Positions 29,484-56,393 of a stretch of 64,000 nucleotides of DNA are shown one piece after another. The notes beneath the pieces are model-generated. The model was not told the origin of the DNA. It saw only the letters and a list, made by a program, of their open reading frames with translations, and made no database searches. The translations under genes were made by a program, and so were the position numbers. The number at the start of each line of letters is the position of its first letter. The first letter of the stretch is position 1. This DNA is from Naegleria gruberi (taxonomy: Eukaryota): the NCBI GenBank assembly GCA_000004985.1, contig GG738891.1, one strand, 5' to 3'.

Positions 29484-31831
29484 ATGATGGGAACAATTTC
29501 CCTCCCAAGTTGTTTGGCGCCTCTCACCACTATGAAACAATCATTTAATAAAAAACAAATGAACAACACCACGACCACAAACCTGCTGACGACAAGCAAC
29601 ACTCCTGCTACAGCAAATAGAAGTGAAGGAGTACAACAAATGAATACTTGTGGCCGAAGCAATACATCATCAACAATGCCAAGCAATATTCAACATGAAT
29701 ATACTATTGCTTCATCTCAAGTGCCAAATAATTATTCACGGGAATATACTTTTCTGAAAAACAATTCTAGGAGCAACTCTTCTGCACAGGAAATTAGTTC
29801 TTCTATTCAAGGACCATTCTCTGAAACAATGTCAATTAAAACTGAGAAGATAGCAGCTGGGATATCAGAAAGAGCAAATGTTTCTCCATTTTCTGAAAGT
29901 AAGCCAATAATTGCTTCTTCATGTATTGAAACATTTACAAATCCATACCATACTCCTTTACTGGGTACGCAATCAATGATCGAGCCTTGTGTACCAATAA
30001 GAAAGCTTCCAAACCTTACCATAAATGTAAACAATAATAGTAGCACTGCTGTCCTTGCATCAGCTGGTTCACATTCTGCTAAACCAAATCAAACTTCACC
30101 TCCTCCACCTTCCAATTTTCCAACAATTCCATTACTTCCAGCCAATTTCACAACAACTACCACTTTAAGTAGTGGTACTTGCACATCAGTGCTTGGCAAC
30201 TGTGGACCAATTCCATTTTCCTTTTCAAAGCCAACTAGTTCATTTGCAGAATTAGGAGAAATCATTTCTCAAGGTAACTTTGGAATACCTAATTCCTCAA
30301 CCTATTGTAATGATACCATTAGTTGCAATTCTACTACTAGCTCTACTTTTGAAGAACCTAAGAAAGTCAAGAATAGAAAAGAAAAATCACTCACCATGAT
30401 TTGCAGCAAGTTTATCCAATACTATGAAGAAAAGGCTAATAGCCCAACAACTAGCGCTCAATCAAAGGGTGACATTAAGATTGAAGAAGCTGTTAACACA
30501 CTAGGTATTGAAAAGAGAAGAATTTATGATATTTTAAATGTCCTCGAAAGTATTTCTATTGTAACAAAAGTTGGTGTTTCATGCTATAAATTCAATGGAA
30601 CAAAGTGCCTCAACGCTACTCTTGAACAAATGAAAAACAGTGCTTTCGTAGATCCACTCCTTTTTGAAGGTATTCAATCACTCCCAAAAAATCCACAAAA
30701 CGAACCAATTATTAAGAGTTTATCAAAGTTTAAACAATCATCTATGACTCATACTTCAAGATCGAACACATTGACATCATTGAGCAGGCTCTTGATTATG
30801 TGTTTCTTGGCAACTGAAGTTAAAGAAATTACACAAGATCAACTTTTGGCCATTGTGCTAAAAGATTCTACCGAAAAGAGTAAGTTGTCAAAGAAATTTT
30901 ATTCTAATTATGATAATTAATAGCGAGAACAAGAAGATTAAATGATATTGTAAACATTTTATCTGCCATTCACTTACTTGAAAAGAAAACTGAAAAGAGT
31001 GTTAATGTTTTCAAGTGGCTTGGTGGATCTTACGCAAATGAAAACAAACCAGTCAGTTCTATCATATCTCCTTCTAAAATGCCTCTGAAAAAGAGAAAGA
31101 GAGTTAAGGCTGGATCACAAGGATCAGATAACGAAACATCTCCATTAACCATTGAAGGTGGTCCTTCTTTTTCTATTGTTGATATACCACAACCTGAAAA
31201 TTCAAAGAACGAAATTTCTGAAATTAGTCCAGTGCCAATCTCTACAGTTTCTCCATCATTTTTCCAAAGCAGTACAACCACTTGTAAAACTCCAACATCT
31301 AGTGGTAGCAACAGCAGTGGTGGTCTTCATTTTCAATTCAGATCGCCACCAAGTAAGAAGAATAAGACCATTCCACTTTCTTCATTCACAACTGTTTTGG
31401 GAGGCGCACCAAAGATTTCTCCAAAGAACTTGAATGAAATCTTCAAGTCAAGCGAGCAACCAATTACGAATAATTCAAATATTCCTGTCCAAAGCCCAAC
31501 CATTCCAAATGCTGGTATTACCACAACATTTGGTAAATTGGGCTCTGGAAGCATTTTTTCACAAACTTCTGGTCAAGTTTCACCTCGAGTAATGCCTTCA
31601 GCTATTAAGGCAACCATTTTCAACGAAAATAATAAGGAAAATGTCTGTAAGCCAACAGTTTCTCAAACTACAAAGAAACCATTATCACCTAACGACAATG
31701 CACAACAAGGTAAAATCACTTTCAAGATTCGTGGTACCAATGAAACAACTTTAGCTCCAAGACAACCACTTGGTCTTAAAACAGACAATGGCGTTAATAA
31801 TCAACAAAATATTAAATCTCCAAGACCTTAA
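29484..31831 (+). CDS. Atypical E2F (E2F7/8/DEL-like) transcription factor with two E2F winged-helix DNA-binding domains, 2 exons
   Basis: The first domain is KSLTMICSKFIQYYEE...IEKRRIYDILNVLESISIVTKVGVSCYKFNG, in exon 1. A 44-nt intron at 30880-30923 (GTAAGT..TAG, phase 1) joins it to ...TRTRRLNDIVNILSAIHLLEKKTEKSVNVFKWLGG, the second E2F/DP-type domain. The frame then continues into ORF 31079..31831 (MPLKKRKR... NLS-like). The start codon is uncertain: 29484, 29532 or 29559, the last having the A-rich context. Confidence 0.7.
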
Positions 31832-31847: not shown

Positions 31848-34141
31848 TTATTTATTCAACAGCTTCATTAATCGTTCAGAATCTACTACAGATGCATCTT
31901 TTTCAAGTTTCTTTTTACAAGTAAGGTAGGCACGTTCAGCTTGTGCAACAATATTGTTCAGCTCTATGGCTCCAGAAAGATCAATGCATGCCTTCAAAAT
32001 ATCATCAAATCTATACTTTTGTGTGACAACCTCGTTTCTAATTTTTTGTAACATGGCGTAACAGATGAAAAGATGGAAGTGGTTTCCATATATTCCAGTC
32101 CATAACTTTTCCCACATATTTTTGCATGATTCAAAATCAAACTCTCTTTTCAACTCCACTAACACCCATCTGAAACAGAAATACAAGTTAAGTGCATCAA
32201 CAGATTGTAAGTGACGGTAGAATTCAGGATCAAGTAATTTGATCAAAGAAACCAATGACACTAATTGATCTTCCATTCCTTGAGAATTCATCTCAAAGTT
32301 ACTTTGTCTAGTTTCCATTATACAAGCAAAACACCAGAATGATTCTACTTCATCTTTCATAATTTCTAACATAATACTGGCATAATCTCCCATTCCTTGT
32401 ACATAACTCAAATCAAAATTGTAGAAAGTGTATGTCAACAGGATGTCATGTAACATAACCAACCATTCACTATCATCACTAGCATACATTGGATGAGTTC
32501 TGTCTGTTCTAATAACATCCTTTTCTATTCTGCTCTTTCTGTCTCTATAAAGAGCAAATCTAGATTCTTGAATGGTAGAAATTGTTGTCCATTGAGATTT
32601 ATAACCATAGTATTCCTTTCTCTTTTCCTCGAGCAGAACTTCTCTTTCACTATAGGTCGAGTTATGAGGATAAAATCCTAACAAGAATTTCCAAACTTCC
32701 TTTCTTATACTATTTTCAACTCCTCCATAGTAAATTTTTTCCTTAAGAGCTTGGAAATCCTTAATTCTACCTTCCTCATCAAAGTATGTCTTCCAAGATT
32801 CAGCAGTGATTGGAGTATCCATTCTTGGAGTCCAACCAATATCTTCTGGTGATTCAATTTTAGGCTTTTGTTGTTGTACATCTATAACTTTGACTGGTTC
32901 AATATCGTTGAAATAATCATCTACTTCCTTGTTTTCCTCTGGCAAATAATTATCATATATTGATTCCTTAAGAGATTCTCTTATTATAGGTGGTGGAACT
33001 TTCTTCTTGTCCTCTAATTAACGATTAAGATCAAATGATATAATTTAACAAAAAACATACCTTCCATCTTTTGCCTTACTTTGAGTAAACTCATAGCAAG
33101 ATTTTCCGAGCCTCCAACTTTGTTATCTACTGAAAGTTCATCTGATTGATTGAATAGTGCACTTGTTAAATCTCTAGCTCCTTTTGTAATTTTACTTCCC
33201 CACTCCAAGATTTGCCAGTATCCATCCTTCTCCTTATACATATCATCAAAATAGTCATCAAAATTAAATTGGTTGATGGTTTTTGATGCTTCTGATGACT
33301 CTGCAGAAATGTAGTAAATATTCTGATCTTTACTACTCTTTTTCAATGTCACTTGTCTATTAAATTCTGAAATGAAATCTACCAATCCACCATCATGGAA
33401 AAACAATGGAGGATAAGTTGTTTCATCTCTCATTGTGATTAAAAGAAAATGATATCCTAATTTTGGAGTTTGTTTTTTGAAATGAGAAATATCTACTGTT
33501 CTCACAACCAATGCGTATGCTGATTCATTTCTTTGAACAAATGGGCTATTATTTTGACTTATATCTACAATACTTCCTTGTGATGGACTACTTGCTAAAT
33601 TTGAGTTTGGAACTCTATGAGAATATCTATCAGGTGTTACAATTTCTCCATTAGATCTTTCATGTAAAACTAAATCGCTATTAAAAGTACAAAGTGTTGA
33701 ATATGGACACCAAACTACATAATAACAAGATCTTAAAACTGGTTGTACATTAGATGTTTCAACAATAAGAGATTTAGCTGTCATTACACTTCTACCAGTA
33801 TTTTCTGTAGTTTTTTCAGTCAAATCCCTCACTAAAAACATAGCACCAGGAATTTGGTCAACAATATCCGAACCTTTTTGATTTGTTGTTTGAATAGAAG
33901 TGTGGATATAGATATCATCCTTTCTCACTACAATTGAATACTTTGAAGATGCTAAATTTTGAGAAGAAAGCAATTCCCTAATATTGGGAGTATCTCCTCT
34001 CACATAGAATGAACTTCCGAATGTTGAATCTGAATTAAAAACTACTTGTGGTGATCCTTCTTCACTTTCATCATCTGATGATTCATGATGATAAATCAAA
34101 ACACTATTATTTAAATCATCCATTCTAAATATAATATACAA
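31848..34141 (-). CDS. TBC-domain Rab GTPase-activating protein (TBC1D15/17 / Gyp7-like) with an N-terminal RabGAP-N region, 2 exons
   Basis: ORF 33014..34141 (N-terminal region including LFFHDGG) joins ORF 31848..32945 through a 47-nt intron at 33014-33060 (GTATGT..TAG, phase 1), giving ...KMEG|EDKKKVPPPII...ENKEVDDYF. The TBC domain has RTDRTHPMY (Arg finger) and YVQGMGDY (Gln finger). Confidence 0.75.
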
Positions 34142-37810: not shown

Positions 37811-38013
37811 ATGGCTTTGTCCACTGTTCACGGAAAAGATTTAAAGATTTTAGGCGCCATCGTATTCGCTAGGTAAGTTGATGATGATGTTTAGTAGTGG
37901 AGATTAATTGATGATGATTATAGAGTGTTGGTTAAAGCATACAGGGAATACACTAGACCAGATTATGCTGAAGTCACAAAGGCTGCCATTGGAAACGCAC
38001 CAGCAAGCAATTA
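37811..38013 (+). CDS. Small 2-exon gene encoding a roughly 50-aa hydrophobic protein (unassigned)
   Basis: AAAAAAAATG at 37811. Exon 1 is 37811..37872. A 51-nt intron at 37873-37923 (GTAAGT..TAG, phase 2) leads to exon 2 ending with TAA at 38011-38013. The product is MALSTVHGKDLKILGAIVFARVLVKAYREYTRPDYAEVTKAAIGNAPASN. Confidence 0.4.
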
Positions 38014-38068
38014 AATTTTCGGATGTTTGATAGTTTTAAAGTGATTGTACAATTTAAAATATATATAT

Positions 38069-40850
38069 TTAAATAATAGGATTTTCTTTTAGAAATTTTC
38101 TGATAGAATCATATTCTCCTTTCGGGTGGGGTAAAACATCATCAAACTGATCAAAACTTAGGGTATATATAGTTCTTGGACCAGTTTGTTCAAGTGTTAT
38201 TTCCTTCTCCCAATCTTCTTTTACATACAAATCCATAATTGATGGTCTTTGTTTTATCTCCTTCAAATGCTTCTTGCTAACTTGCTTTTTCAATTTCGTT
38301 TCAACAATATCATAATTCTTTTCGGCAACATCTTGTTTTTCTACTATATTTCCAAACATTGATTCACCAGGTGTATAGTTGAGTACCTTCTCTGCATCAT
38401 TCTTGTTGAATAGACTGTTCTCTTTCAGTACTTGTCTAGCAGTTTGTTCATTAAATTCTTCGGATTGTTTTTGATGAAGTTTATACTCAATTCTTCTCGA
38501 TGAATTGGGTATTATTGCTGGTGTATGTTGTGGAATGTCATACTCTGGTTCTGTATTCTGGGTTGGTTCAGTTTCAGCATCAGAGAAATGGTTGACTATC
38601 TTTACCTGATTAGAGGATGATGATTTCTTCAGTGAGCTAGGTTTTGGCTTCTTTGGCACTAGAACCTCAATTTGAAGATTGGAACCTGAGTTGACTCTTG
38701 TTGTTTCTGGTTTGATACGTTTTCTGAGTGGCTTACTAGCGTTAACTGGGGATTGAGATGCAATGACATCATCAATGATAACAGGCTTGGGGATTTCTTT
38801 CTCTCTTCGTATGACTGGCTTTGGAAGACTCTCAGTTATCTGTGGAGTTTGAATAAGCTCTTCATCTAGGGAAGGAGATTGTTTGTTAAATTCTGGAAGG
38901 GAATGAGTTTTGAGAATGGGAGATGATTGTTTGGGCGGGGATTTCGTTTTTCTAATTTTGATAACCTGTGGCTCAGGAGTTAACATGTCTCTGTTTCTAT
39001 CAATATCATTAAGGTCAATACGATCGTCTTGAGGTTTGTTTGGAGTAAATTCTTGGCTCCATAGCATTTGGTCCATCGTTTGTGGTATTGTGGGATCCAT
39101 ATTGTCAGTAGATGGACTTTTAGTTGGCTTTGGTACATTTCTAATCTCCCTTGGTAACGATATTGAGGATAAACTACTCATTACTGAGGTAACATCAGAC
39201 AGCAGATCTTCATCAGATGAATAATCGATAGTGTTAGGTTGTTGTTCTTCTTCTGTTAGCTCCTGTGCATGATCCTTCTCTTCGTGAGGGGAATAATATG
39301 ACTGCATTTGTTTTGGAACACTTTGTGGCCTAGGAGTTTCCAATGAAAAGCTCATGTTTTGATAAGACTCTTCTGGTTGCTCTGGTTGTTCGAGAGGGTA
39401 TTCATCATAGTGATTTTCTTGTTGGTCTTTCTTGATAATTTGACTTATTATTTCATCAATCAGCCAAACATGACCCCTTCCATCCTTATCACAAGCTACC
39501 AAATGAGATCCTGGAAGTGGAATGGAGCTTTTTACATTAATACGATTGTCTTTCTTCATGCTAAATACTGTACAAAATAAAATAGGAGTTTCAAAACTAT
39601 ACTCCATTACCAAGAGTTGACCAATATAGAATTGCATTGAATTTGAAATAATCCTGTTATTCTTATCCCTGAATGAAACGGAAAACACGTTTACCATATC
39701 ATTATTCATGAAAAAGCAAGTTACTGAATTCACAGTTATATTCTTTTAAAAGTCAATAAGTGAAATGAGAGTTTACATACAGGTTGATCTGAAATAATAT
39801 AGTATGCTATTTGTAAATTTAGTACTGTCTTTGAGTAAACGTCTTCAGACTCCTCATACAGATAAACTGTTCCTAGTTGATTACAAGCAATTAAAGATGA
39901 CGAAGGCAAGAAGTCCCTCATTAGAGATAATGGACTCGATTCTAAAATGATTTGTTGAAGTAATTGTTGGTTTTCTATGTCGTGTCTGATTTACAATTAG
40001 ATGAAAATTATTCCTTAATTAAAACCTACATTAATAAAATTCCATCTTGTCCACCTCCACTCACTATAAATGGGTTCTTTGAGTAGCCACTTGTTGGTAT
40101 TACAATGGCCACTTTTTGAAGAAATTGTTTTTTGTGTACACCTTTCAAAGACCAGGCCAATTCAAAAGACTCGTCTTGATTCATTTCAACACTCTCCTCT
40201 CTATGAATCCATACTTTTAAATCTCCATTAATTGATCCAGTTACTAAATAATTATTCTCCATGTCAAAACAAGTGATTTGATCTTGATGTTGAGCACATC
40301 CAAATACATGGGTCGATCTGGCAAATAAACTATCATTCTCATAATATGTTTTTCCAAAGTGTACCACAGAGTAGAACATTTTGTTTGAATTTTGCTGTAA
40401 AAAGCAAATTTTGTATGCTGGACATCCATGATAGCATGGAGGCTCATCTTCCTCATTCTCAAATAAAATCCTTGATTTATAAGTCCTAGGTGTTGATAAT
40501 TGATTATTAGAAATGAATTTGAACTGTTTCCATGGTGTATTCAGAGGAATGATATCACCTTCTGATTCTACAAACAATTTGTAAATTGCATATTCATTTT
40601 GTTGTATGTTGAAAAGTCTAATTATTAGACAAGGTCACTCTCTACAACTGCAAACAAATACTCACTTTAAATAACCCTTATTATCCGATATACCAATAAC
40701 TTCATCTTCAGTATGAAGAGATGGTACTTGATAGATTGTTGTAGTATAATCCTTAGTTGATGCATCCTCTGCATACCGATCCAGATAAAAATCCTCATCA
40801 ATCCTTGCCAATCTAAAGCCAACCTGTTGTTCACTGCTTGTTTTCTGCAT
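38069..40850 (-). CDS. WD-repeat-containing protein with a long Ser/Pro/Gln-rich C-terminal region, 4 exons, about 883 aa
   Basis: Exons on the minus strand are 40850..40666, 40617..40030, 39985..39781 and 39742..38069. Introns are 40618-40665 (48 nt, GTGAGT..TAG), 39986-40029 (44 nt, GTAGGT..CAG, weaker donor) and 39743-39780 (38 nt, GTATGT..AAG). All keep the frame and fuse four ORF-track fragments. A WD motif YLVTGSINGDLKVW is present. Confidence 0.5.
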
Positions 40851-40875
40851 TTTTTCTTTTTTTAAACTTAAAAAT

Positions 40876-41421
40876 ATGAGCACAACATTATCTGCTTCGG
40901 AACTGAATCAAAAGAATGAAACATTAATATTGAATATAATAATAGTAATATTGATTGCTAAAATTTTGAATATTATTTGGAAAAAGCTTATTCATGATAG
41001 ATTAATTAATGGAACGGCTCGGAAATTGGAAAGGGAAATTGCTCTCCTTCAAAAGAGTAGCATTGCTCTTAACACACCTTCAAAGTTTGTAGAATATTCC
41101 AAGACTCAAAGAAGATGGAAAAAGAGAGAAAAGTTATTATCGGAAATTAAGAATACGTCATCTTATCGAGTTAAGATTGTTATTTCCTATGTCATACAAT
41201 ATGCACTTTCTCTAGGAGCACCTATTTGTTGCACTTTGTTGTGGTATGGGGAGAAGATTTCCACACTGGCCAGACCAGACTTTTGTTGTTTATCCAGAGG
41301 AGAATCATTGTGTTTGCCACAATTAATTTGTAGTGAGAGTGGATTTCAAATTGTTACTACATCATTTGTAATACTCACAATGAAGAGTTTGGATTATCTC
41401 AGTTCCATTCTGTTCAAATAA
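40876..41421 (+). CDS. WRB/GET1-like tail-anchored-protein insertion receptor subunit
   Basis: 181 aa with AAAAATATG start. An N-terminal TM helix is followed by a charged coiled-coil (SKFVEYSKTQRRWKKREKLLSEIK, compare WRB DEFARYARLERKINKMTDKL) and two further TM helices. Its start codon is 25 bp from the divergent start of the WD gene. Confidence 0.45.
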   Translation: MSTTLSASELNQKNETLILNIIIVILIAKILNIIWKKLIHDRLINGTARKLEREIALLQKSSIALNTPSKFVEYSKTQRRWKKREKLLSEIKNTSSYRVKIVISYVIQYALSLGAPICCTLLWYGEKISTLARPDFCCLSRGESLCLPQLICSESGFQIVTTSFVILTMKSLDYLSSILFK

Positions 41422-41510: not shown

Positions 41511-41792
41511 TTAGTTTTGCTTGTTGTTAACGGCAGCCTTTGGGGTGCTTCCGACCTTCCATCCGTTTCTTTCTCTTCTCAAAGCGAGCTTCAAATAACG
41601 ACATCTACCAGTACCAGTGGTGTTTCTTCTAATAGCCTTATAAGCCCATTGGTACTTTCTGATCTTTGGTGATGGGAATCCGCAAGAAGCACAAGTCTTC
41701 TTTTGAATATGGTAAGATCTTCTATCACATCTTGGACACATACCGTGTGTCTTGGTGTGTCTCAAACCGAATGATTGGGTACCCTTGGTCAT
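41511..41792 (-). CDS. RPL37: 60S ribosomal protein L37e
   Basis: 93-aa protein [49 protein letters not shown]..., with the C4 zinc ribbon and full-length similarity to L37e. Codons are biased toward C/T-ending preferred codons, consistent with high expression. Confidence 0.92.
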
Positions 41793-42218: not shown

Positions 42219-43352
42219 ATGAGTCATCTCGATCAAAGGAAGAGGAAATACAATGATGATGAGGACGATAATTCTCCATCCACAGACACACAACTCATGA
42301 TCAGAGCAGACAGTCATGAACAAGATGAAAAGAGGAGAAAATTAACATCTTTAATGGAATTACCTCCACGTTCGTCATCGCTTTCAGCACCAATTTTAAA
42401 ACTTGATGGACACAAATCCGAAGTATTTACTTGTAAATTTTCGAATAGTGGAAATTTTCTTGCTACAGGTTCAGCAGATAAATCAGTTTTATTGTGGGAT
42501 GTTTTCGGAGAGAGTGCCAAGAGTGAAGATGATGACTTATCATCAACCACTGTGAATTATGGTAGCTTATTGGGACATAAGAATGCTGTATTGGATTTGG
42601 ATTGGTTTACATCAGAGGATCGTATTTGTACAGCTTCAGCTGATAATACTGTCATCTTGTGGGATATTATCAAATGTCTTAAAGTGAGACAATTTAAACA
42701 ACATTCATCAATTGTAAATTCTTGTTCAACATCAAAATATTCAAAACAATCGGATCTATTTGTATCAGCAGGTGATGATAGAGCCATCAATATTTATGAC
42801 CAAAGAGAAAGAAAATGTATAAAAACAATCAAGAGCAAATATCCAGTCTTCTCGGCATGCTTTTCAGAAAATAATGATAGATTATTCACATGTGGAATTG
42901 ATAGTGTCATTACTACATGGGATTTGAAAACTGATAAATTCATTTACAACCTAGGCAGTGGGCACACTGATTCAATTACAGATATCAAGCTTTCACCTGA
43001 TGGTAATTTCCTCCTAAGTAATTCTATGGATGGCACATGTCGTGTTTGGGATTGTAGACATTATGCCGAATCTGCCAATAGATGTGTAAAATTATTTAAT
43101 GGAGCTAAACATTCAATGGATAAGAATCTAGTTCGTGTTGCATGGTATAAGGATAGCTCATTGATTTCAACAGGTGCCGAAAATGATGTCATGATTTGGA
43201 ATACCACTACAAGAAAGATTGAATATCAATTACCTGGACATCATGGTTCTGTAAATTGTGTTCATTTCCATCCTCAACAACCAATTATTGCCTCAGCTTC
43301 AAGTGACAAGACTGTTTATTTGGGTGAAATTGATTCAAAATCTATTTATTAA
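42219..43352 (+). CDS. SNRNP40: U5 snRNP 40-kDa WD-repeat protein (SNRNP40/WDR57 homolog)
   Basis: 377 aa with seven WD repeats. It matches human SNRNP40 along its length (SSLSAPILKLDGHKSEV..., LLSNSMDGTCRVWD, HPQQPIIASASSDKTVYLGEI). AAAAAATG start. Intronless. Confidence 0.88.
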   Translation: MSHLDQRKRKYNDDEDDNSPSTDTQLMIRADSHEQDEKRRKLTSLMELPPRSSSLSAPILKLDGHKSEVFTCKFSNSGNFLATGSADKSVLLWDVFGESAKSEDDDLSSTTVNYGSLLGHKNAVLDLDWFTSEDRICTASADNTVILWDIIKCLKVRQFKQHSSIVNSCSTSKYSKQSDLFVSAGDDRAINIYDQRERKCIKTIKSKYPVFSACFSENNDRLFTCGIDSVITTWDLKTDKFIYNLGSGHTDSITDIKLSPDGNFLLSNSMDGTCRVWDCRHYAESANRCVKLFNGAKHSMDKNLVRVAWYKDSSLISTGAENDVMIWNTTTRKIEYQLPGHHGSVNCVHFHPQQPIIASASSDKTVYLGEIDSKSIY

Positions 43353-44814
43353 ATAATAATTTTTCAATTTTGGCCAATCTTGCTTCTAAAACAGCTTTAT
43401 CCTTATACAGATAAAGTTCATTAAAATCTTCAGCCTTCTTCTTTACCAGAGTTGACTTCTTGGGTGTTGCCTGTTGTAATTTGTTGCTGACATTGTTCAC
43501 AATTTCACTTTCAGCAAGACTTTGACTCTTTTTCAACAATATTTGTTCCTCTCTTTTCACATTTTCCTTAAAGGTCTCTCTTGGAACCATCATAATATTA
43601 TTGACAATAAAATCAACCATTACATCCATCTTTAAAAAGTTTTCACTATTAATCCATTCATAATTTGTTTCATCTTTTCTGAACCATGTATTTTGATGTT
43701 TGGAATATCTTCTGGTGGAAACTTTGAATTCTCTCAAAAATCTCAAGAAGGATTTCTTTAAAGCTGATTTGAAAAAGTGATCCCTCCTATCAACAGTTTT
43801 CATATAATTAATGAAATCATAAGCTTCCTTATAACCAATTGATCTGAATGGAACTGTATGATCTAGTAATATTCCTCGATCCATTAAACTGTATACTTCT
43901 TCTAAAAGTCCAGCTTCCACTAAATTTTCACATCTCCTTTCCAAACTTGCATAGAGTTTATATCTGTCTAAATAGAGAACAATTCCACGAACATCTAAAT
44001 TATTTTCAGATACTTTATCCATAAATCCATTCTTATACTTGAATTCTTTCATTGTTTTTCCAGATTCAGTCACAATAGTATAAGCTCTATTCAATCTATA
44101 TAAATCATTTCTGTGAATTTTTGATGCATATTCTGGATCTTTTTCTTGTAAAACTTTATATCTTCTATCCCATTCATCAGTTGAAACTCGTGTTAAATCA
44201 TCCATTTTTTGAACAGAAAGAGTAGTTGGTTGTGGAATTTCCAAATTAGTTCCATCAATGAATGTATTCAAGTAAAAAGCACTTCCTCCAACGAGTATTG
44301 GCAATTTTCCTCTCGCCAGAATTTCCAAACACTTTTCATGAGCATCAACATAAAATTGTTGAACTGTATATTGATGAGTTTTATCGTGTGCACATTTTTC
44401 CAATGAAACATTATTAACTAAATGATGAGAAATTCCTTGCATTTCCTCTTCTTTAATTTTGTTACTTCCGATAGAACATTCCTTATACATTTGAACAGAA
44501 TCTACATTAATAATTTCTCCATTCAATCTTTTAGCAATTTCAATAGAAATTGGTGTTTTACCTGTACCTGTTGCTCCTGTTATTATAAAAACTTGATTTT
44601 TCAATTCTTTTGCAATATTATTAGTATGATTATTGTTACTATCCATTGTTGTTGTATTATTAATAGTTGTTGTTGTTGATGAATAATTAAATTTAATAAT
44701 AGGAGCAACATTTTGAATCAGTAGTGATTTGATAAATCCTCTTCGGAGCATTGCATTATTACATGATGGTGGACCACCAAACAACAATTTCAATCCTTGT
44801 TGTTGTTTGAACAT
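43342..44814 (-). CDS. tRNA dimethylallyl(isopentenyl)transferase (MiaA/Mod5/TRIT1 family)
   Basis: P-loop IITGATGTGKT followed by the DSVQMYK motif and a conserved IPT core. 490 aa. Its last 11 coding bp, 43342..43352 including the stop, overlap the 3' end of the SNRNP40 CDS on the opposite strand. Confidence 0.85.
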   Translation of the reverse strand: MFKQQQGLKLLFGGPPSCNNAMLRRGFIKSLLIQNVAPIIKFNYSSTTTTINNTTTMDSNNNHTNNIAKELKNQVFIITGATGTGKTPISIEIAKRLNGEIINVDSVQMYKECSIGSNKIKEEEMQGISHHLVNNVSLEKCAHDKTHQYTVQQFYVDAHEKCLEILARGKLPILVGGSAFYLNTFIDGTNLEIPQPTTLSVQKMDDLTRVSTDEWDRRYKVLQEKDPEYASKIHRNDLYRLNRAYTIVTESGKTMKEFKYKNGFMDKVSENNLDVRGIVLYLDRYKLYASLERRCENLVEAGLLEEVYSLMDRGILLDHTVPFRSIGYKEAYDFINYMKTVDRRDHFFKSALKKSFLRFLREFKVSTRRYSKHQNTWFRKDETNYEWINSENFLKMDVMVDFIVNNIMMVPRETFKENVKREEQILLKKSQSLAESEIVNNVSNKLQQATPKKSTLVKKKAEDFNELYLYKDKAVLEARLAKIEKLLFNK

Positions 44815-49670: not shown

Positions 49671-50201
49671 ATGCAATCAAATCCTATTGAAACTCACCAA
49701 AATACTTCATCAAATATTAAACAATACTTTGAAAATTGGAGGAAATTAATCAAATCTAATCCAGTTGTTACCGCTCAAGTAATAATCATTGCTATCATGT
49801 TGATACTTTTTATAATATCAACATTCGGACAAAGTGAAAGAGATATCAGTTCTGCTACATGTTTATTGGCTGTCAAGTTTGTTTTACCATTCTTTTCGTG
49901 TATATTTTGTTTGGCTAGGAGTAAGCTCTTGGTAGGAGTGATGGCCTTCCTTTCATTAATCTCACTCACTGCAGGAAGTTTATGTGCATTCTTGATCATG
50001 TATCCATTCCATGGTAAGGTTGTGGAAGACCCATTAATTAGTGGTCCTGCTTGGGGAATTATGGGATTTGAAGTCGTTTCATTTTCTTGTCAAATTGTAA
50101 TGATTTTCTGGATTAGGTCCATTGAAAAGACACCTAGTGAAACAATGAGTATTCCACAACAAGAACAAGTACAACTTAATGACGAAGAAGATCAAGTTTA
50201 A
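49671..50201 (+). CDS. Hypothetical 4-TM small membrane protein (176 aa)
   Basis: ACAAAACAAAATG start. Four hydrophobic helices and an acidic C-terminus. The stop is 1 bp from the stop of the convergent F-box gene. Confidence 0.4.
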   Translation: MQSNPIETHQNTSSNIKQYFENWRKLIKSNPVVTAQVIIIAIMLILFIISTFGQSERDISSATCLLAVKFVLPFFSCIFCLARSKLLVGVMAFLSLISLTAGSLCAFLIMYPFHGKVVEDPLISGPAWGIMGFEVVSFSCQIVMIFWIRSIEKTPSETMSIPQQEQVQLNDEEDQV

Positions 50202-50202
50202 T

Positions 50203-52104
50203 TTACTTTTTAGGTTTTTCTTTTCTAATAAACTCAATAGTATTTTCACTATCCTCACAATTTGAATAAGTTTCTAAATATTTCAGAGAGGGCATTAGTT
50301 TCTTAAGAGAAGGTAGATTTAAATCATTAGACCTCCAAAAGAATGTTTTTAAACATAAATATTCCACATTACTGAATACACCAGAATTAGGAACATCGAT
50401 CATAAATAATTTCTTGGAATCAATAATTCCAACTAATTGAACTGAACGAAGTTCCAATTCTTCTACATGATCTGGAATATTCATTTCAATGGAAGTGTTT
50501 TTAGCAGCCTGTAAGGCCAAATTGTTAATAGATTTCATTCGCTTTAACATTTTCTCAACCTGAGCTGACTTTAGGGATGTTTTTGTAAAATTGTTAATTT
50601 TTAAAATGTGAAGATTTGGAAATGTTGAAGGATCTAAAATATCTAATAATGTTTTTGATAAGTTAATTTTTGTAAAAGTTATTCCTCTAACACACTCAGA
50701 AAGTGAATTCAAGATGGTGGCGACGAAATCTGGACTACAATCTTCTAATGTTACGTATTCAACAACTTTCAAAACCTGATCAAGAATTTTCTTATCTGGA
50801 AGACCTTCATTCTTTTTAAAGTTTTTGCATGTGATTTCTTTCAAGCATTGATTTGTTGAAGGCAATTTCTTAAGGCAGTCATAACCAATTGATTCTCCAT
50901 TCACAATCATAGAAACCAAGTTTGGTACATATTTGATCATTGAGTCATGATTAACATAGGCCCTCTTTACAAATGGGCAATCTAATTTTACAATTACTGT
51001 AACATGCTCTAAATCTATTAAATCCCAAGCCATAGTAGGTTCCTTTACATTCAGTACAGCAATATCATTTAGACCTAAACTTGAAAGTTGTTTAGAATCA
51101 ATGCTTAAATTTTCTGATCTAAAAACAGTACATTTCTCCAAAGTTGGGCACTGAATCACTATATTGGAAAAGTCACTTATATGTAAGCTTGTGATAGTTG
51201 GGTGGGATATTGTAATCTCTTTGGTTTTTTTGTGATGGGATGTTATACAAAGATGTGTAAGGGTTGGAAACTGCTTCAAAGCACTTGATGCCTTGGAGAA
51301 TACATTGAGTATGAAAGGACTTGAATGACAGCTCAATGATTTTAACTTGTCAAAAACAGTATCTGTTCTCTCGAATATCGTACAGTAAGCCGAAATGTCA
51401 TCCTTTTCTGGGGCAGCATTTTTTGAGTGATCAAGGGGTATGGCCTTTGCCTTAATGTTATGCTTGTTTACCATATTTTCAATACCTGGAATTCTGGTAT
51501 AAGTTTTGATTGCATCAATTCTAAATGTAATGTACTTTTCAAAAAAAATCATTTCACTTTTAACATCAATTGGATATTCATAATGAACAAGTGCTTGTGG
51601 CAATTCACTCGCTTGTTTCCACAATTTGCAAACTCTATTAATTTGAACAAATTCCTTAACTGGAAGGTATGAAAATATGATAGCCCATATTTCTGGAATA
51701 TCAAGTTTAAAAAGAAAGTAACTATCCTGAGAGGGATTAATTGTTCGAATAGAATTGGACGTCATGAACATGTCTGCTTGCATTACAGAAACCAAAAACT
51801 CATCAGTCACTTGTTTCAAATGTTTAACAATATTAATTGACAATTCTTTTTGTTTCAAATTAGTTTCATCAGAAAAGAGCCTTCGGAGAGAGTCTTCATC
51901 CTTTAATTTCTTGACTGTCTGTGCCATCCATTGAACAAAATCATCCGATGATGTCTCACACTCAATCAAAACTTGATCACTATTCTTCTCTTTAATTTCT
52001 TCATCAGTACTTGATGATTGTTTCACCTTTTTTACTTCTACTTCACAAGCAGAATCTGCTTCCGTAATCTTTCTCTTACTGGCCACTTTTTTGTGTGGTG
52101 GCAT
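50203..52104 (-). CDS. F-box/LRR-repeat protein
   Basis: N-terminal region F-box motif IPEIWAIIFSYLPVKEFVQINRVCKLWKQ, followed by leucine-rich repeats to the C-terminus. 633 aa. The start has an A-run context. Confidence 0.6.
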   Translation of the reverse strand: MPPHKKVASKRKITEADSACEVEVKKVKQSSSTDEEIKEKNSDQVLIECETSSDDFVQWMAQTVKKLKDEDSLRRLFSDETNLKQKELSINIVKHLKQVTDEFLVSVMQADMFMTSNSIRTINPSQDSYFLFKLDIPEIWAIIFSYLPVKEFVQINRVCKLWKQASELPQALVHYEYPIDVKSEMIFFEKYITFRIDAIKTYTRIPGIENMVNKHNIKAKAIPLDHSKNAAPEKDDISAYCTIFERTDTVFDKLKSLSCHSSPFILNVFSKASSALKQFPTLTHLCITSHHKKTKEITISHPTITSLHISDFSNIVIQCPTLEKCTVFRSENLSIDSKQLSSLGLNDIAVLNVKEPTMAWDLIDLEHVTVIVKLDCPFVKRAYVNHDSMIKYVPNLVSMIVNGESIGYDCLKKLPSTNQCLKEITCKNFKKNEGLPDKKILDQVLKVVEYVTLEDCSPDFVATILNSLSECVRGITFTKINLSKTLLDILDPSTFPNLHILKINNFTKTSLKSAQVEKMLKRMKSINNLALQAAKNTSIEMNIPDHVEELELRSVQLVGIIDSKKLFMIDVPNSGVFSNVEYLCLKTFFWRSNDLNLPSLKKLMPSLKYLETYSNCEDSENTIEFIRKEKPKK

Positions 52105-52236: not shown

Positions 52237-53931
52237 ATGTACAGTAATGATCCTTTTGATGATGGGGAAAGAGTGAATCGTTTCTCTTCATTTGAACAGT
52301 CGGAGCCAGCGTTTGATGAGAGGATGATGGAAGATAGACAACAATCATTTGGTGGTCCTTCTTCAAACTCAGCCTTGGATCCAGCCCTTAGAGCTCTTAT
52401 TAAATATAGAAGAAGAAAATTTACAGAGTCTGTGGATGCTTGTAATCAGTTATTATCCAAAAATTATAAGGATATGTCCATGTGGTATATAAAATGTAGG
52501 GCGTTGACTGCTAAAATGTGGATTGATGATACAGAAATGGAAGATGAAGGTATTGCTGATATTTTACTTGATGAAACATCGGTAACAACAGCTCCTCGTC
52601 CTGGAACTTCTCTTAAAAGACCACACACTAATTCATCAGGCAAAAGAAGTGCCAATCCGAGTGTCAGACCTCAAACTAAGGATGGAAGACCAATCACTGG
52701 TTTTTCAAGACCTGGTACCAATAGCGGAAGAAACACTGCAAGTAGAGGTGGGACAGGAACACAAAGTAGAGGTGGAACTTCAAGTATTGAAAATATATTT
52801 AAAGGTGCAAGACCTGGAACAACAAGACCAGTTACTACAACAGGTAGATTTGTTCGTTTGGGTACTGCCTCAATGAAAATATCTGGACTTGATCAAGAAT
52901 ATGCAATTTCAACAGAACATATTGATTTGAAAAAGTATGCTGCTATTCCTCCTCTTGCTAAAGCATTGTATGACTATTTTATAGTTGTGGAACATGATGT
53001 AAAAAAAGCATTAGAATTGGCTTCTTATGCTACAATTGAGGCTGAATTTAAGGATTGGTGGTGGAAGGCTCGTCTCGGAAAATGTTACTACCAATTGGGT
53101 TTATTGAGAGAAGCTGAAAAACAATATAGATCTGCAATCAAGAGCCAGCACATGATTGCAACATGCTTGGAATTAGGCAAAGTTTTCCTACGATTGGATC
53201 AGCCTAATAAGGCTTTAGAAGAATACGAGTCAGCATGTTTGAAATTCCCAAATGATACACATTTGATACTAGGTATTGCAAGAGTTTATGATAGTATGAA
53301 CGATCTGGACAAGGCCATTCAATATTATGAAAAAGTGCTGCATCTTAACAGTAGTAACGTTGAAAGTATTGCTTGTTTGGCAGGTAACTATTTCTATGAA
53401 GATCAACCTGAAGTAGCTATCAGACTGTACAGAAGATTGATTCAAATGGGTGTTAATAATTCAGAATTGTGGAACAATTTGGGACTTTGTTGTTTCTACG
53501 CTTCTCAATATGATATGGTATTCTCATGTTTTGATAGAGCTCTCCAATTAGCTGAAGATAATAATGAAGCAGAAGTGTGGTACAATATTGGTCAAGTTGC
53601 CATTGGTATTGGTGATGTTGGTCTTGCATATCAGTGTTTCAAGATTGCCACAAGTATTGACAATGAACATGCAGAAAGCTTTAACAATTTGGGTGTTTTA
53701 GAATTGAGAATGGGCAATACAGAAGAAAGTAAGAATTACTTTGCTCAATCAATGGCTCTTGGACCAAGTCAACACGAACAAATATTCAACAATGCCTTAT
53801 TATCATTCAAGAGAGGCAATCACCAACAAGCTCACGAACTTGTATTGAAGATTCTGAAAGATATTTATCCTGAACATGCTGATTCTCAGGAATTGAGGAA
53901 GAAATTAGAAGCCAAATATTTAATGCTCTAA
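52237..53931 (+). CDS. TTC8: Bardet-Biedl syndrome 8 protein (TTC8), TPR-repeat BBSome subunit
   Basis: Near-collinear matches to human BBS8: RPGTSLKRP, GRPITGFSRPGT, GRFVRLGTASM, KDWWWKARLGKCYYQLGLLREAEKQ, LDQPNKALE, FYRRLIQMGVNNSELWNNLGLCCFYASQYDM, VWYNIGQVAIGIGDVGLAYQCF. 564 aa, intronless. AAAAAAAAATG start. Confidence 0.9.
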   Translation: MYSNDPFDDGERVNRFSSFEQSEPAFDERMMEDRQQSFGGPSSNSALDPALRALIKYRRRKFTESVDACNQLLSKNYKDMSMWYIKCRALTAKMWIDDTEMEDEGIADILLDETSVTTAPRPGTSLKRPHTNSSGKRSANPSVRPQTKDGRPITGFSRPGTNSGRNTASRGGTGTQSRGGTSSIENIFKGARPGTTRPVTTTGRFVRLGTASMKISGLDQEYAISTEHIDLKKYAAIPPLAKALYDYFIVVEHDVKKALELASYATIEAEFKDWWWKARLGKCYYQLGLLREAEKQYRSAIKSQHMIATCLELGKVFLRLDQPNKALEEYESACLKFPNDTHLILGIARVYDSMNDLDKAIQYYEKVLHLNSSNVESIACLAGNYFYEDQPEVAIRLYRRLIQMGVNNSELWNNLGLCCFYASQYDMVFSCFDRALQLAEDNNEAEVWYNIGQVAIGIGDVGLAYQCFKIATSIDNEHAESFNNLGVLELRMGNTEESKNYFAQSMALGPSQHEQIFNNALLSFKRGNHQQAHELVLKILKDIYPEHADSQELRKKLEAKYLML

Positions 53932-53961
53932 ATAAATTGTCAATAAACCAATATTTAAAAA

Positions 53962-55725
53962 ATGCAACAATCTAGTCGGAGATTAATCTCCAAATTACGA
54001 GCATCACCTTCACTACTTCGGAGGAAAACAAATAATATTTCTTTATCATCAAATTATTCTTCTTCTTTTCATCGATCCATTATTAAACAAAATACTAATA
54101 ATAATAGCAATAATACTGTGGAAATAATTAATGAAGAAAAGGCTAAAGAACCTATTAAACTTCTTCAAAGAACAATTTCCTATCCAATTTATGAATCATT
54201 AGAATTTAATGATAAAACTCATCTAGTCTATCAAAAGGAATTTAAATTATTGGAATCAAAATCTTTAAATTTAGAAATTAATACACGTAATATGAATGTA
54301 GAAATTTGTAATTATCAAGATGATGATAGTGATTCTATTAAAATTGAAATATATACACATAATTGTAATCCATATTCATGGTATGATTTAAATAATACAC
54401 CACAAGGCTTCTTCTCCGATTATAAAATTGAACATTTATTTAGAGATTTAACAAATACATTGAGAATTAATGTTCATCAAGCACCAGTTCCTTCTCTTTT
54501 CTATAGACATAAATTATTTAATCAAACTATTGATAATGTATTTCTTCCTAATGAAGTTTCTAAATTTATTGAAAGTAGAACTAAATTTACAACAATGAAA
54601 GTTTATTTACCTAAAGAAAATAATTCAATTAAAGTTGAAACTGATATTGGAAATATTATATTTAGAAATTTGAAAAATTTAAATGAATGTTTTGTAAAAT
54701 CATCATTTGGATCATTATATATTGATAAAGATGGCATTGATAATGTAAAAAAATTTAATTTGGAAATGTTATATGGATCTTGCTTTATTAAGAAAGTATC
54801 TAATGTGGAAAATTTGAAAATTAATCATTTATTTTCACTTATAGATCATTTTGGACGTGGAGCTGGAATTTTAGCATCAAATTCAATTACATTAGATAAT
54901 ATTGATTCAAATTCTAATGTAAATATTCATACAATAGATCCAATAGATATATTTGTTAATCAGATTAGTCTTACAAATAATAATACTCTATCAATTTCAT
55001 GTAGAACTAAAGATGGTACTTTATTTACGTATACTTCAAATGGAATTCAAGTTTTTGTATCTGATGAAGTCAATTCAGGCACAAATTCAAAACTTAAAAT
55101 ATTCTCAGATTCTAATCCAATTACTTGCTATTTTGATAAGAATTCTGTTGTAAATTATAAAGTACAGGCTGTTTCACAAAGAAGTGATGTCTCAGTAGAT
55201 TACAACAATATAATATTTGATGGAAGTGATGTTGTGAATAGTGTGAATGGAACAATTGTTAGTAGAAAAGATACTAAACGATTACATCTTCTCAATCAAT
55301 CAATAATTGATTCTCCTCAAGAAGAAAATATTGATACTACTGCTACTGATTTATCCTCATTAACTGAATGCCCAATTGGTGGTGATGTATCAATGACTTG
55401 TAGACATTCACAAATTCACATTAAACAATATGAATATCTTTTATTGGGTGATGGTGAACAAGGTGCTGATTCTGATTTGAGTACAAGACGATTACTCTAT
55501 CAGAAACAAAGTACCTCAGAGTATTATATTGAACTTTTGGATTATAGAATTGCAAAGAGAGATGCTTTTGTTTACGTTTCCATAGCTGTTTTATTGATAA
55601 TTTATGTTTCCATTATCAAATTTTATTCAATTCCAACATTTGAAAAGCAAGCTTGGTTGAACAATAGTGGAATGGCTTCAACGATGGGAAATCCAACTGA
55701 GGCTTTAAGACCAAACACTAAATAA
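53962..55725 (+). CDS. Hypothetical protein: R/S-rich presequence-like N-terminus, large beta-rich N/S/I-rich region, single C-terminal TM helix
   Basis: 587-aa ORF with AAAAAATG start only 30 bp after the TTC8 stop. The C-terminal hydrophobic segment is AFVYVSIAVLLIIYVSIIKFYSI. No confident family. Confidence 0.4.
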   Translation: MQQSSRRLISKLRASPSLLRRKTNNISLSSNYSSSFHRSIIKQNTNNNSNNTVEIINEEKAKEPIKLLQRTISYPIYESLEFNDKTHLVYQKEFKLLESKSLNLEINTRNMNVEICNYQDDDSDSIKIEIYTHNCNPYSWYDLNNTPQGFFSDYKIEHLFRDLTNTLRINVHQAPVPSLFYRHKLFNQTIDNVFLPNEVSKFIESRTKFTTMKVYLPKENNSIKVETDIGNIIFRNLKNLNECFVKSSFGSLYIDKDGIDNVKKFNLEMLYGSCFIKKVSNVENLKINHLFSLIDHFGRGAGILASNSITLDNIDSNSNVNIHTIDPIDIFVNQISLTNNNTLSISCRTKDGTLFTYTSNGIQVFVSDEVNSGTNSKLKIFSDSNPITCYFDKNSVVNYKVQAVSQRSDVSVDYNNIIFDGSDVVNSVNGTIVSRKDTKRLHLLNQSIIDSPQEENIDTTATDLSSLTECPIGGDVSMTCRHSQIHIKQYEYLLLGDGEQGADSDLSTRRLLYQKQSTSEYYIELLDYRIAKRDAFVYVSIAVLLIIYVSIIKFYSIPTFEKQAWLNNSGMASTMGNPTEALRPNTK

Positions 55726-55742
55726 ATTAAATATTTAATTTC

Positions 55743-56393
55743 CTACTTGTTGAATAATGAATAGTAACAAATAATAATACATGTAAATACTGTAATAGAA
55801 AGTGTTACTAATTTAACAATTTCAAAATCTTGTAAGTTTCCAACTGGTATATCTACTGATATTATTTGAGTATTTTCTGAATTGATAATATTAAATTCCT
55901 TTCCATCAATATAGAAAATTGTTGGGATATTAATTTGCACAGTTGTGAAAGATTCAGTTGAGCTTGGAAATTGATATCTAAAATGTATTGGATATTTAAA
56001 AGTAACAGTGAATTCATTTCCACTTTGTTTTACAATCTTTGACAATGTGACATTATGTTCAGTACTAGAATATGATGGTGCCTCAACATTGATATAATAT
56101 TGATGTTTGGGTAAGAGAATTTCTTTCATATTATTAATTTCATAAATATCAATATAAATATCCTTTGATAATTTTTCCACATAGGAAATATTCATCAATT
56201 TACCAACAGCACTGTTCTCGGAATTATTTAATTTAATTCTAAATGTGCTAATTAATTCTCTGTGAAATCCTTGTTTTGTTAATTCCCTAGATATTAAAGA
56301 TACTTCTTGTGTAGTAACAAATTCTAGTTGTTGAATAAATAAAAGAGTGCCAATAATTAACATAATAGTGTTCCGAATAATCTTATTGTACAT
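55743..56393 (-). CDS. Type I membrane protein, possibly PIG-X/PBN1-like (GPI mannosyltransferase accessory subunit)
   Basis: 216 aa with an N-terminal signal/anchor (IMLIIGTLLFIQQL), a luminal domain containing PIHFRYQFP, and a C-terminal TM (LVTLSITVFTCIIICYYSLF). The PIG-X assignment is from memory of an H-x-R-Y-x-x-P motif and is weak. Confidence 0.3.
   Translation of the reverse strand: MYNKIIRNTIMLIIGTLLFIQQLEFVTTQEVSLISRELTKQGFHRELISTFRIKLNNSENSAVGKLMNISYVEKLSKDIYIDIYEINNMKEILLPKHQYYINVEAPSYSSTEHNVTLSKIVKQSGNEFTVTFKYPIHFRYQFPSSTESFTTVQINIPTIFYIDGKEFNIINSENTQIISVDIPVGNLQDFEIVKLVTLSITVFTCIIICYYSLFNK

Follow-up and report, generated by a model that had tools for sequence, protein, structure and literature searches.

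The window analysed here is a 64-kb stretch of Naegleria gruberi nuclear DNA that holds about 33 genes, among them a convergent pair whose coding sequences (CDSs) overlap. On the plus strand the CDS of SNRNP40 (U5-40K) occupies positions 42219-43352 and ends ...YLGEIDSKSIY, with the stop codon TAA at 43350-43352, while on the minus strand the CDS of a tRNA dimethylallyl (isopentenyl) transferase (IPT) occupies 43342-44814 and ends ...KIEKLLFNK, with the stop codon TAG at 43344-43342 (CTA on the plus strand). The 11 bp that they share (CTATTTATTAA, 43342-43352), read directly from the sequence, are confined to the last three codons and the stop of each gene. The best PDB match of SNRNP40 is the U5 snRNP 40 kDa protein (E=3e-84), with an alignment that reaches residue 371 of 377; its C-terminus is kept in N. 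lovaniensis and N. fowleri (...YLGEIDPKAI) and is the same in the public model EFC40609/NAEGRDRAFT_60826 (42354-43349). IPT matches the Pfam family IPPT (2.7e-57), is 100% identical to an N. gruberi protein (P0001) and has a C-terminus conserved up to ...KLLF in four species. Conserved residues of both proteins extend into the overlap, and the two stand as a convergent overlapping pair, that is, genuine genes on opposite strands with nucleotides in common up to their true stops.

Four species have IPT and SNRNP40 as convergent neighbours, at distances of -11, +134, +65 and -17 bp; the CDSs overlap in two of the four, by 11 bp here and by 17 bp in a metagenome relative (L009), and compared with N. 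lovaniensis and N. fowleri the pair is inverted as a single unit. The arrangement is old, with a junction whose length is free to vary, and the overlap most likely arose through loss of the spacer together with a one-codon extension of SNRNP40.

Hexamers of the poly(A)-signal type lie directly at this junction. On the plus strand an ATTAAA (43348-43353) contains the SNRNP40 stop codon and is followed by a T-rich run; it is a putative dual-use signal, and on the minus strand an AATAAA (43345-43350), likewise a putative signal, forms the last two codons of IPT (N, K) directly before the TAG. As the IPT orthologues end otherwise (FTNV, FENVSSI), this AATAAA is specific to N. gruberi. A second minus-strand AATAAA (43315-43320) follows the IPT stop and falls within the SNRNP40 CDS, antisense to it. 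Both putative signals at the stops are held by a single 9-mer, TTTATTAAA (43345-43353), so that each mRNA would end antisense within the last codons of the partner. We infer that the two transcripts must, logically, overlap if both CDSs are expressed.

Other closely spaced genes

Several further convergent pairs are nearly as tight. The stop codon of a two-exon Elongin C gene (23200-23622, plus strand; stop 23620-23622), whose spliced product can be aligned with human Elongin C up to the final residue, lies 4 bp from that of an AMP-binding acyl ligase (23627-25795, minus strand), which is identical to EFC40675 and has a C-terminus conserved to within 2 residues in four species; the same convergent pair has a gap of 59 bp in N. 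lovaniensis. A 176-aa ORF (ORF 49671; 49671-50201, plus strand) ends 1 bp from an F-box gene (50203-52104, minus strand; Pfam F-box; identical to EFC40684/NAEGRDRAFT_71600), and an ATTAAA of the latter (50202-50197) overlaps the stop codon of the ORF. ORF 49671 carries an in-frame codon-usage signal and gave no significant Pfam match; since the neighbours of TTC8 differ in N. lovaniensis and Willaertia, it is without orthologue support. Judged by eye only, its translation has apparently hydrophobic, membrane-like segments. An atypical E2F gene with two winged-helix domains (29484-31831, plus strand) ends 16 bp from a TBC RabGAP gene (31848-34141, minus strand; Pfam and a tblastx match to the N. 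lovaniensis TBC gene), whose end reads ...AAT AAA TAA A with the AATAAA running through the stop codon. A NEK-like protein kinase gene (17388-18821, plus strand; Pfam Pkinase), with an AATAAA overlapping its stop (18820-18825), ends 25 bp from a Pre-SET/SET methyltransferase gene (18847-21243, minus strand; Pfam; identical to EFC40674), and an independent assembly with 99% identity (L008) has the same ends and the same 25-bp spacer.

Same-strand neighbours are also close. A giant coiled-coil gene encoding 2096 aa (56411-62701, minus strand) is followed after 17 bp by the PIG-X gene (55743-56393, minus strand; Pfam PIG-X), with an ATTAAA at 56402-56397 within the spacer. The TTC8/BBS8 gene (52237-53931, plus strand), which is identical to EFC40610 and has homologues named TTC8/BBS8, is separated by 30 bp from a conserved 587-aa ORF (orf587; 53962-55725, plus strand), and two AATAAA hexamers (53931-53936 and 53942-53947) lie in this spacer upstream of the ATG at 53962. 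The 30-bp gap depends on that ATG: in the public model translation begins at 54292. The ATG at 53962 stands in the A-rich context usual for starts and shows in-frame coding signal. A gene rich in S and P (4888-7131, minus strand; identical to EFC40671) has its stop inside an AATAAA (4892-4887) followed by a T-run, and 38 bp downstream lies the ATG (4849) of an SMC gene (1470-4849, minus strand) which opens a canonical N-terminal Walker A region. The A-run before ATG was entertained as a special initiator and dropped, as it is found at nearly all Naegleria and Willaertia starts; it may simply be an A-rich start-codon context.

All these coordinates were re-read directly from the sequence, and the 11-bp overlap, the four convergent gaps (4, 1, 16 and 25 bp) and the three tandem gaps (17 and 38 bp, and 30 bp if the ATG at 53962 is used) are those that an initial sequence-only reading of the window had given. 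Its gene names are also right in essentials, except that the gene called NEK is confirmed as a protein kinase only, and that E2F and a 250-aa ORF are one gene, as Pfam E2F_TDP matches both ORFs and the frame continues from 30917.

Three tight spacings come in addition to those of that reading. The stops of the LMBR1 and SMC genes are 25 bp apart, with AATAAA on both strands of the spacer (1445-1469). PIG-X, besides its 17-bp tandem gap, lies in convergent orientation 17 bp from orf587, whose stop is inside an AATAAA (55721-55726); both termini of PIG-X align with orthologues, as does the C-terminus of orf587, which is the same in the public model EFC40611. The gaps on the two sides of PIG-X are 17 and 87 bp in N. 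lovaniensis and 4 and 76 bp in N. fowleri. The orf587/PIG-X spacer is filled by an 18-bp perfect palindrome, AAATTAAATATTTAATTT (55724-55741), which has ATTAAA on both strands and is the longest perfect palindrome of the 64-kb window. Lastly, a divergent pair has only 25 bp (40851-40875) from ATG to ATG, between an 828-aa-type gene (ATG 40850, minus strand) and a GET1/WRB-like gene (ATG 40876, plus strand; the public model EFC40608 also starts at 40876). Both N-termini align with orthologues, the gap is the same in an independent assembly (L010), and the corresponding spacer of N. lovaniensis and N. fowleri is longer, at about 190-235 bp. The two genes may use a bidirectional promoter.

Authenticity of the genes and spacing by orientation

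The sequence-only reading had named re-inspection as the step by which one partner of each pair might turn out not to be a real gene. In every tight pair both members are instead genuine genes with genuine ends: in the key pairs the C-termini align to the ends of their orthologues, an in-frame codon-usage signal covers the last 40 codons of every partner, and independent assemblies of a 99%-identical strain have the same spacers. Together with the Pfam and PDB matches and the N- or C-termini kept in Naegleria orthologues, exact identity to public N. gruberi models (IPT, SNRNP40 with the same C-terminus, AMP ligase, F-box, SET, TTC8 and the S/P-rich gene) makes all these partners look like real genes. 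That the packing is an artefact, with one partner false or a true end lost to an unrecognised intron or a sequencing error, is a notion invited by the missing Pfam match of ORF 49671 and by several public models whose 5' end is not that of the longest ORF, but it is largely refuted for the key pairs by the aligned C-termini of SNRNP40, IPT, Elongin C, AMP ligase, PIG-X and orf587, the codon usage and the agreeing assemblies, and it deserves hardly any credence.

Spacers are shortest where 3' ends meet, intermediate between same-strand genes and longest where 5' ends meet. In this single window and on a hand-built gene list, the median gap between CDSs is 25 bp for convergent, 127 bp for tandem and 276 bp for divergent neighbours, convergent spacers being shorter than divergent ones (Mann-Whitney p=0.0017, revised gene list) and below 44 bp in 8 of 12 cases; the order is repeated in the relatives' loci, with medians of 80, 230 and 436 bp. 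Our first gene list comprised only ORFs of at least 100 aa, was without RPL37e and a small two-exon gene, and had two genes split; the revised list, drawn up after tblastx against the relatives, led to the same conclusions. The strand switches at 23 of the 32 adjacent gene pairs, giving 24 strand runs for 33 genes and a mean run of 1.4 genes. tRNA and Rfam searches of the 64-kb window returned no matches, and the spacers are thus not explained by RNA genes.

Poly(A) signals at stop codons

Direct-RNA nanopore sequencing has established AAUAAA as the top poly(A) signal hexamer of N. gruberi, with cleavage 15-20 nt downstream and conventional polyadenylation, and its authors inferred AWUAAA (AAUAAA or AUUAAA) to be the ancestral signal (PMC11529991). 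The median 3'UTR measures 39 nt, falling to 22 nt for dual-use stops, in which the stop codon is part of the signal (PMC11529991). Stops that overlap an AWUAAA hexamer, the defining feature of that class, occur in this window: AATAAA or ATTAAA stands in or against the stop codon in about one third of the genes. On the revised list such a hexamer starts between -6 and +3 of the stop at 12 of 33 stops, ten of these between -2 and +2. By form, AA[TAA]A is present in 5 genes and AT[TAA]A in SNRNP40 and a small gene at 38012, and three more hexamers start at +1 or +2. With the first list and the same -6 to +3 range, hexamers were counted at 11 of 33 stops, where 2.7 would be expected if all stop trinucleotides of the window are taken as background (p=3.6e-5). 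The excess comes partly from AT-rich composition and the preference for TAA, for which this background controls only in part.

Given the published usage in N. gruberi, we infer that the hexamers at the stops of the window probably act as poly(A) signals. For Elongin C, AMP ligase, SET and the 3' exon of E2F no canonical hexamer lies closer to the stop than 60-70 nt, and at the corresponding junctions canonical hexamers are mostly missing in N. lovaniensis and N. fowleri, as well as in the metagenome relative whose CDSs overlap by 17 bp.

Compaction and its alternatives

We consider it probable that these arrangements reflect genome compaction in a gene-dense stretch, in which genes are expressed singly in the usual eukaryotic way and their non-coding ends have been squeezed almost away. 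Convergent genes at distances of -11 to +25 bp would each have a short 3'UTR and a cleavage site antisense to the last 5-15 codons of the partner, and the paired mRNAs would share roughly 30-75 nt in a tail-to-tail overlap. For the overlapping pair the signals in TTTATTAAA and the published cleavage distance predict 3' ends near 43368-43378 for SNRNP40 (plus strand) and near 43320-43330 for IPT (minus strand). In tight tandem pairs the signal of the upstream gene and the A-rich start context of the downstream gene would both fit within the 17-38 bp spacer, which would place the downstream promoter inside the upstream gene. As for the overlap itself, the likeliest view is that it serves no function and is simply tolerated as a by-product of compaction. 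The suggestion of the sequence-only reading that the 3'UTR of one gene overlaps the UTR or CDS of its neighbour is supported by the published 3'UTR lengths, the predominance of convergent spacers under 44 bp and the hexamers at the stops.

An alternative is that the overlaps are kept by selection, with mRNA overlap or palindromic signal modules coupling the expression of the partners via transcriptional interference or double-stranded RNA. Such a role could be read from the adjacency of IPT and SNRNP40 in four species with CDS overlap in two, from the inversion of this pair as one unit and from the palindrome in the orf587/PIG-X spacer. However, the length of the junction differs among species (-17 to +134 bp), as do the sequences of the overlap, the relatives are without the palindrome and the hexamers, and the functions of the paired genes are unrelated. 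Moreover, conserved adjacency is expected in any case, since the spacers are too short to offer a harmless breakpoint. Hence we regard selection for the overlaps as unlikely.

A more far-reaching version holds that convergent Naegleria genes share near-palindromic two-way poly(A) modules which act as bidirectional terminators, forcing a sense-antisense mRNA overlap of 30-75 nt that is long-lived and exploited for pairwise co-regulation or small-RNA production. Candidate modules are TTTATTAAA (43345-43353), ATTAAATATTTAAT (55726-55739) and AATAAATAATTTATT (1450-1464), and the persistence of the state would follow from the overlap of the IPT and SNRNP40 CDSs in two lineages that share only 54% identity in the IPT protein. 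We hold this version to be quite unlikely.

The sequence-only reading had also allowed for polycistronic or unusually processed transcripts, with a spliced leader on their 5' ends. Polycistronic units that are split by trans-splicing of a spliced leader or processed in another unusual way, as in the related Euglenozoa, might be suspected from the same-strand spacers of 17-38 bp, which leave little room for a promoter, and from the placement of Naegleria, like Euglenozoa, in Discoba (bioRxiv 10.64898/2026.07.29.740908). Against this, the frequent strand switches leave no long same-strand arrays in the window, and Heterolobosea are reported to be without polycistron-like gene arrays or long same-strand arrays (bioRxiv 10.64898/2026.07.29.740908). 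Further, in every tight tandem pair the upstream gene carries an AWUAAA of its own at the stop or within about 11 nt of it, the 17-bp and 30-bp spacers (two of the three) contain no AG acceptor and so no AG with a pyrimidine tract, polyadenylation in N. gruberi is conventional (PMC11529991), and the window gave no Rfam match, a weak test limited to this window. The suggestion is thus not borne out, and we judge such processing very improbable.

Implications and relation to known systems

The practical value of these observations is modest. Loci of this kind will be mis-modelled by gene finders that rule out CDS overlap or expect long UTRs, several of the public N. gruberi models in the window appear to begin at internal methionines, and unstranded RNA-seq mixes the signals of neighbouring genes. 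More generally, the window suggests that 3'-end signals can be compressed into stop codons and neighbouring CDSs in a free-living protist, beyond reduced parasites. Should the overlaps prove to have a regulatory use, convergent-gene interference could be studied in Naegleria as a simple system, although nothing here requires regulation. Our literature search on gene overlap, convergent or antisense transcripts, 5'UTRs and start-codon context in Naegleria found no relevant description.

Tail-to-tail cis-natural antisense pairs, which are convergent genes with overlapping 3' ends, occur in yeast, plants and animals and usually overlap UTR to UTR. The Naegleria pairs resemble them in consisting of two opposite-strand protein-coding genes with common 3' ends, but in Naegleria the coding sequences themselves overlap or lie no more than 25 bp apart. 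The polycistronic, spliced-leader units of Euglenozoa are likewise comparable in their very short same-strand spacers and in their discoban affinity, whereas the Naegleria window has alternating strands, a separate signal for each gene and, in two of three tight tandem spacers, no AG.

In organism and in signal there is a likeness to the dual-use stops and ultrashort 3'UTRs described from N. gruberi itself and Giardia (Genome Res 2024, PMC11529991), which similarly have the stop inside AWUAAA (AA[TAA]A, AT[TAA]A); their 3'UTRs of about 20-40 nt would be matched by the transcripts of this window. Neighbouring genes are outside the discussion of that study, whereas in the loci of this window the putative signals of two convergent genes are interleaved over 9-18 bp, and the predicted UTRs would have to enter the CDS of the partner. 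Overlapping transcription is known from the compacted genomes of microsporidia and nucleomorphs (Williams et al. 2005 PNAS; Corradi et al. 2008, both as cited in PMC3629993). As portrayed there, the spacers are similarly too short to hold UTRs, and transcripts for this reason start or end inside neighbouring genes; these are extremely reduced genomes of parasites or endosymbionts, often with multigene transcripts, whereas N. gruberi is a free-living amoeboflagellate with poly(A) signals reported to be conventional. The packing in this window looks like an ordinary outcome of compaction, of a type known from other compact eukaryotic genomes, rather than a new mode of gene expression.

Gene spacing in the window

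The window (GC ~32%) holds about 33 genes per 64 kb in the revised version of our gene list, with CDS spans covering 89% of it; its genes use the standard genetic code and include introns. The sequence-only reading had described convergent coding regions that overlap or nearly touch and co-directional genes 17-38 bp apart, and on re-reading the sequence all its coordinates proved right. The CDSs of SNRNP40 (U5-40K; 42219-43352, plus) and the tRNA isopentenyltransferase (IPT; 43342-44814, minus) have 11 bases in common, CTATTTATTAA, with the TAA of the former at 43350-43352 and the TAG of the latter at 43344-43342. Stop-to-stop gaps are 1 bp for ORF 49671/F-box, 4 bp for Elongin C/AMP ligase (the latter at 23627-25795, minus), 16 bp for E2F/TBC and 25 bp for the kinase (17388-18821, plus)/SET pair. 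Stop-to-ATG gaps are 17 bp from the giant gene (2096-aa coiled-coil; 56411-62701, minus) to PIG-X (55743-56393, minus), 30 bp from TTC8 to orf587 (ORF 53962; 53962-55725, plus) and 38 bp from the S/P-rich gene to SMC (1470-4849, minus). To these can be added three junctions absent from that reading: LMBR1/SMC (25 bp), orf587/PIG-X (17 bp) and a 25-bp spacer between divergent start codons at 40851-40875.

The convergent CDS gaps (-11, 1, 4, 16, 17, 25, 25, 40, 54, 89, 202 and 778 bp; median 25) are shorter than the divergent ones (n=11, median 276 bp; Mann-Whitney p=0.0017), with tandem gaps having a median of 127 bp (n=9). The same ordering of convergent, tandem and divergent gaps (medians 80, 230 and 436 bp) was recovered from called genes at six loci of N. 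lovaniensis, N. fowleri and Willaertia, where convergent gaps are slightly larger than in the window (p=0.02). The 89-bp gap involves a ribosomal protein L37e gene (41511-41792, minus; 93 aa), overlooked by a scan with a 100-aa minimum ORF length, which forms a further convergent pair with the GET1-like gene. We also observed a small two-exon gene (37811-38014, plus; ~50 aa, MALSTVHGKDLKILGAIVFAR / VLVKAYREYTRPDYAEVTKAAIGNAPASN) with its stop within ATTAAA; conservation was seen by translation in N. lovaniensis and by tblastx in N. fowleri, the gene is uncalled in the loci examined from both, and a Pfam search gave no match.

Reality of the partner genes and their ends

SNRNP40 is a WD40 protein whose PDB match, U5-40K (E=3e-84), aligns through residue 371 of 377, and its tail, YLGEIDSKSIY before the stop, aligns with the terminal YLGEIDPKAI of two other species. 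The IPT ORF shares 100% identity with a protein encoded on a 339-kb Naegleria gruberi contig, has orthologues in N. lovaniensis, N. fowleri and one metagenome, and its C-terminus is kept as far as KLLF in four species. Thus, conserved residues of both proteins extend into the 11-bp overlap. Further, the public models of both have C-termini exactly as read here, which means that the published annotation already contains the overlap implicitly; ten further window ORFs matched public N. gruberi models in an exact-sequence look-up.

The other partners are likewise supported: the alignment of the spliced Elongin C product reaches the final residue of human Elongin C, the AMP ligase C-terminus is conserved to within 2 residues in four species, the ends of PIG-X, orf587 and the giant gene align with orthologues, SMC ATG 4849 starts a canonical N-terminal Walker A segment, and an E2F gene carrying two winged-helix domains has a 250-aa ORF as its 3' exon. 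In a leave-one-out codon-usage score, both the last 40 codons and the whole ORF of every partner were positive in frame and above all other frames; ORF 49671 is a putative gene, supported by this codon usage and by apparently hydrophobic, membrane-like segments judged by eye. The kinase/SET and 25-bp divergent spacers recur, with identical called ends, in independent assemblies, built from metagenomes, of a strain with 99% identity.

At the 5' ends, public models begin at internal methionines (SNRNP40 at 42354, IPT at M57, orf587 at 54292). The upstream ATGs at 42219, 44814 and 53962 each lie in the customary A-run context and show in-frame coding signal, and the SNRNP40 N-terminus from 42219 is also conserved among orthologues; hence, these models are probably truncated N-terminally. 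The 30-bp gap after TTC8 holds for ATG 53962 and not for the annotated 54292. A short intron or a change of frame near 30917 divides the second E2F/DP winged-helix domain of the E2F gene (29484-31831, plus) between two frames, and the two domains suggest an atypical E2F7/8- or DEL-type factor. SMC stops soon after its conserved C-terminal ATPase motifs (1470-1530, minus; ending ISHNSAVQNEADCIIHV), and a possible additional 3' exon would need to overlap LMBR1 on the opposite strand.

Conservation of the junctions

The convergent IPT/SNRNP40 adjacency is found with gaps of 134 bp in N. lovaniensis and 65 bp in N. fowleri; compared with both, N. gruberi has the two genes inverted together. In a divergent Naegleria-like relative (JGI metagenome 3300002220; IPT 54% identical) the CDSs overlap by 17 bp (locus L009, 2418-2434; CTAAAGTTTTGGATTGA). 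As this overlap differs in sequence from that of N. gruberi, overlap is either ancestral or recurrent. Two more groupings, AMP ligase/Elongin C and orf587/PIG-X/giant gene, have been kept with gaps that vary, and rearrangement breakpoints around 42219-44814 and 53962-62701 avoid the tiny spacers. In comparison with N. lovaniensis and N. fowleri, the orf587/PIG-X/giant block has moved. Both of those species carry a cytochrome c gene next after the WD40 gene, and none was detected at the corresponding window position. Selection for a particular overlap would be one explanation of such junctions. However, the adjacency is old and the junction length has drifted from -17 to +134 bp, which fits better with tolerance.

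Transcript ends

Nanopore direct RNA sequencing of N. gruberi identified AAUAAA as the main poly(A) signal and AWUAAA as its ancestral form, with cleavage 15-20 nt past the signal, a median 3'UTR of 39 nt, and a hexamer overlapping 11-13% of stop codons, in mRNAs with a median 3'UTR of 22 nt (PMC11529991). In the window, AATAAA or ATTAAA starts between -6 and +3 at 11 of 33 stops in the first gene list, where 2.7 would be expected on the basis of every stop trinucleotide in the window (p=3.6e-5), and at 12 of 33 in the revised list. The SNRNP40 stop lies within ATTAAA (43348-43353) and the last two IPT codons are AATAAA (43350-43345, minus), placing both putative signals within TTTATTAAA. The LMBR1/SMC spacer, the ORF 49671/F-box junction and the orf587/PIG-X spacer show interleaved hexamers too; an 18-bp perfect palindrome, the longest in the window, fills the last of these. 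Both the palindrome and these hexamers are peculiar to N. gruberi, canonical ones being mostly missing from the matching junctions of the relatives compared.

Eight of the 12 convergent gaps fall below the combined length of two 22-nt UTRs. Each mRNA of a tight convergent pair is predicted to end 15-25 nt beyond its signal, antisense to the last codons of its partner, so that partner mRNAs would overlap by ~30-75 nt. The proposal that transcripts either overlap their neighbors or are polycistronic or unusually processed is thus retained, on published N. gruberi values, for 3'UTR overlap. Polycistronic or spliced-leader processing finds no support: 23 of 32 neighbors switch strand, the 17- and 30-bp tandem spacers contain no AG dinucleotide, and a comparative study describes Heterolobosea as lacking polycistron-like architecture (bioRxiv 10.64898/2026.07.29.740908). 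The strand switching exceeds random orientation (two-sided p=0.02), with no excess in the relatives' loci (27 of 46), and may be a local fluctuation.

Within the tight tandem pairs, every upstream gene has its own hexamer, at the stop or in the spacer, and every downstream ATG is preceded by the A-run found at nearly all Naegleria and Willaertia starts. The spacer therefore accommodates a 3'-end signal directly followed by a start context, and the promoter of the downstream gene would have to overlap the upstream gene. Across the window and the loci compared, this A-run is typically TTAAAAAAATG, and in several genes it includes ATTAAA, itself a poly(A) hexamer. At 40848-40878, ATG 40850 of an 828-aa-type gene (minus) and ATG 40876 of the GET1/WRB-like gene (plus) lie just 25 bp apart (TTTTTCTTTTTTTAAACTTAAAAAT); in N. 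lovaniensis and N. fowleri this spacer measures ~190-235 bp. Here either the promoters must overlap the partner CDS or the 5'UTRs must be just a few nucleotides long.

Relationship to known systems

Our literature searches found no description of CDS overlap or interleaved signals in Naegleria. The closest descriptions include the dual-use stop codons, which overlap the hexamer, of N. gruberi, the very species of the window (PMC11529991), compacted genomes with overlapping transcription (work cited in PMC3629993), and tail-to-tail antisense gene pairs in general. The overlap and interleaving in N. gruberi, with their predicted mRNA ends, are an expected instance of a known phenomenon, and public annotation already implies the overlap.
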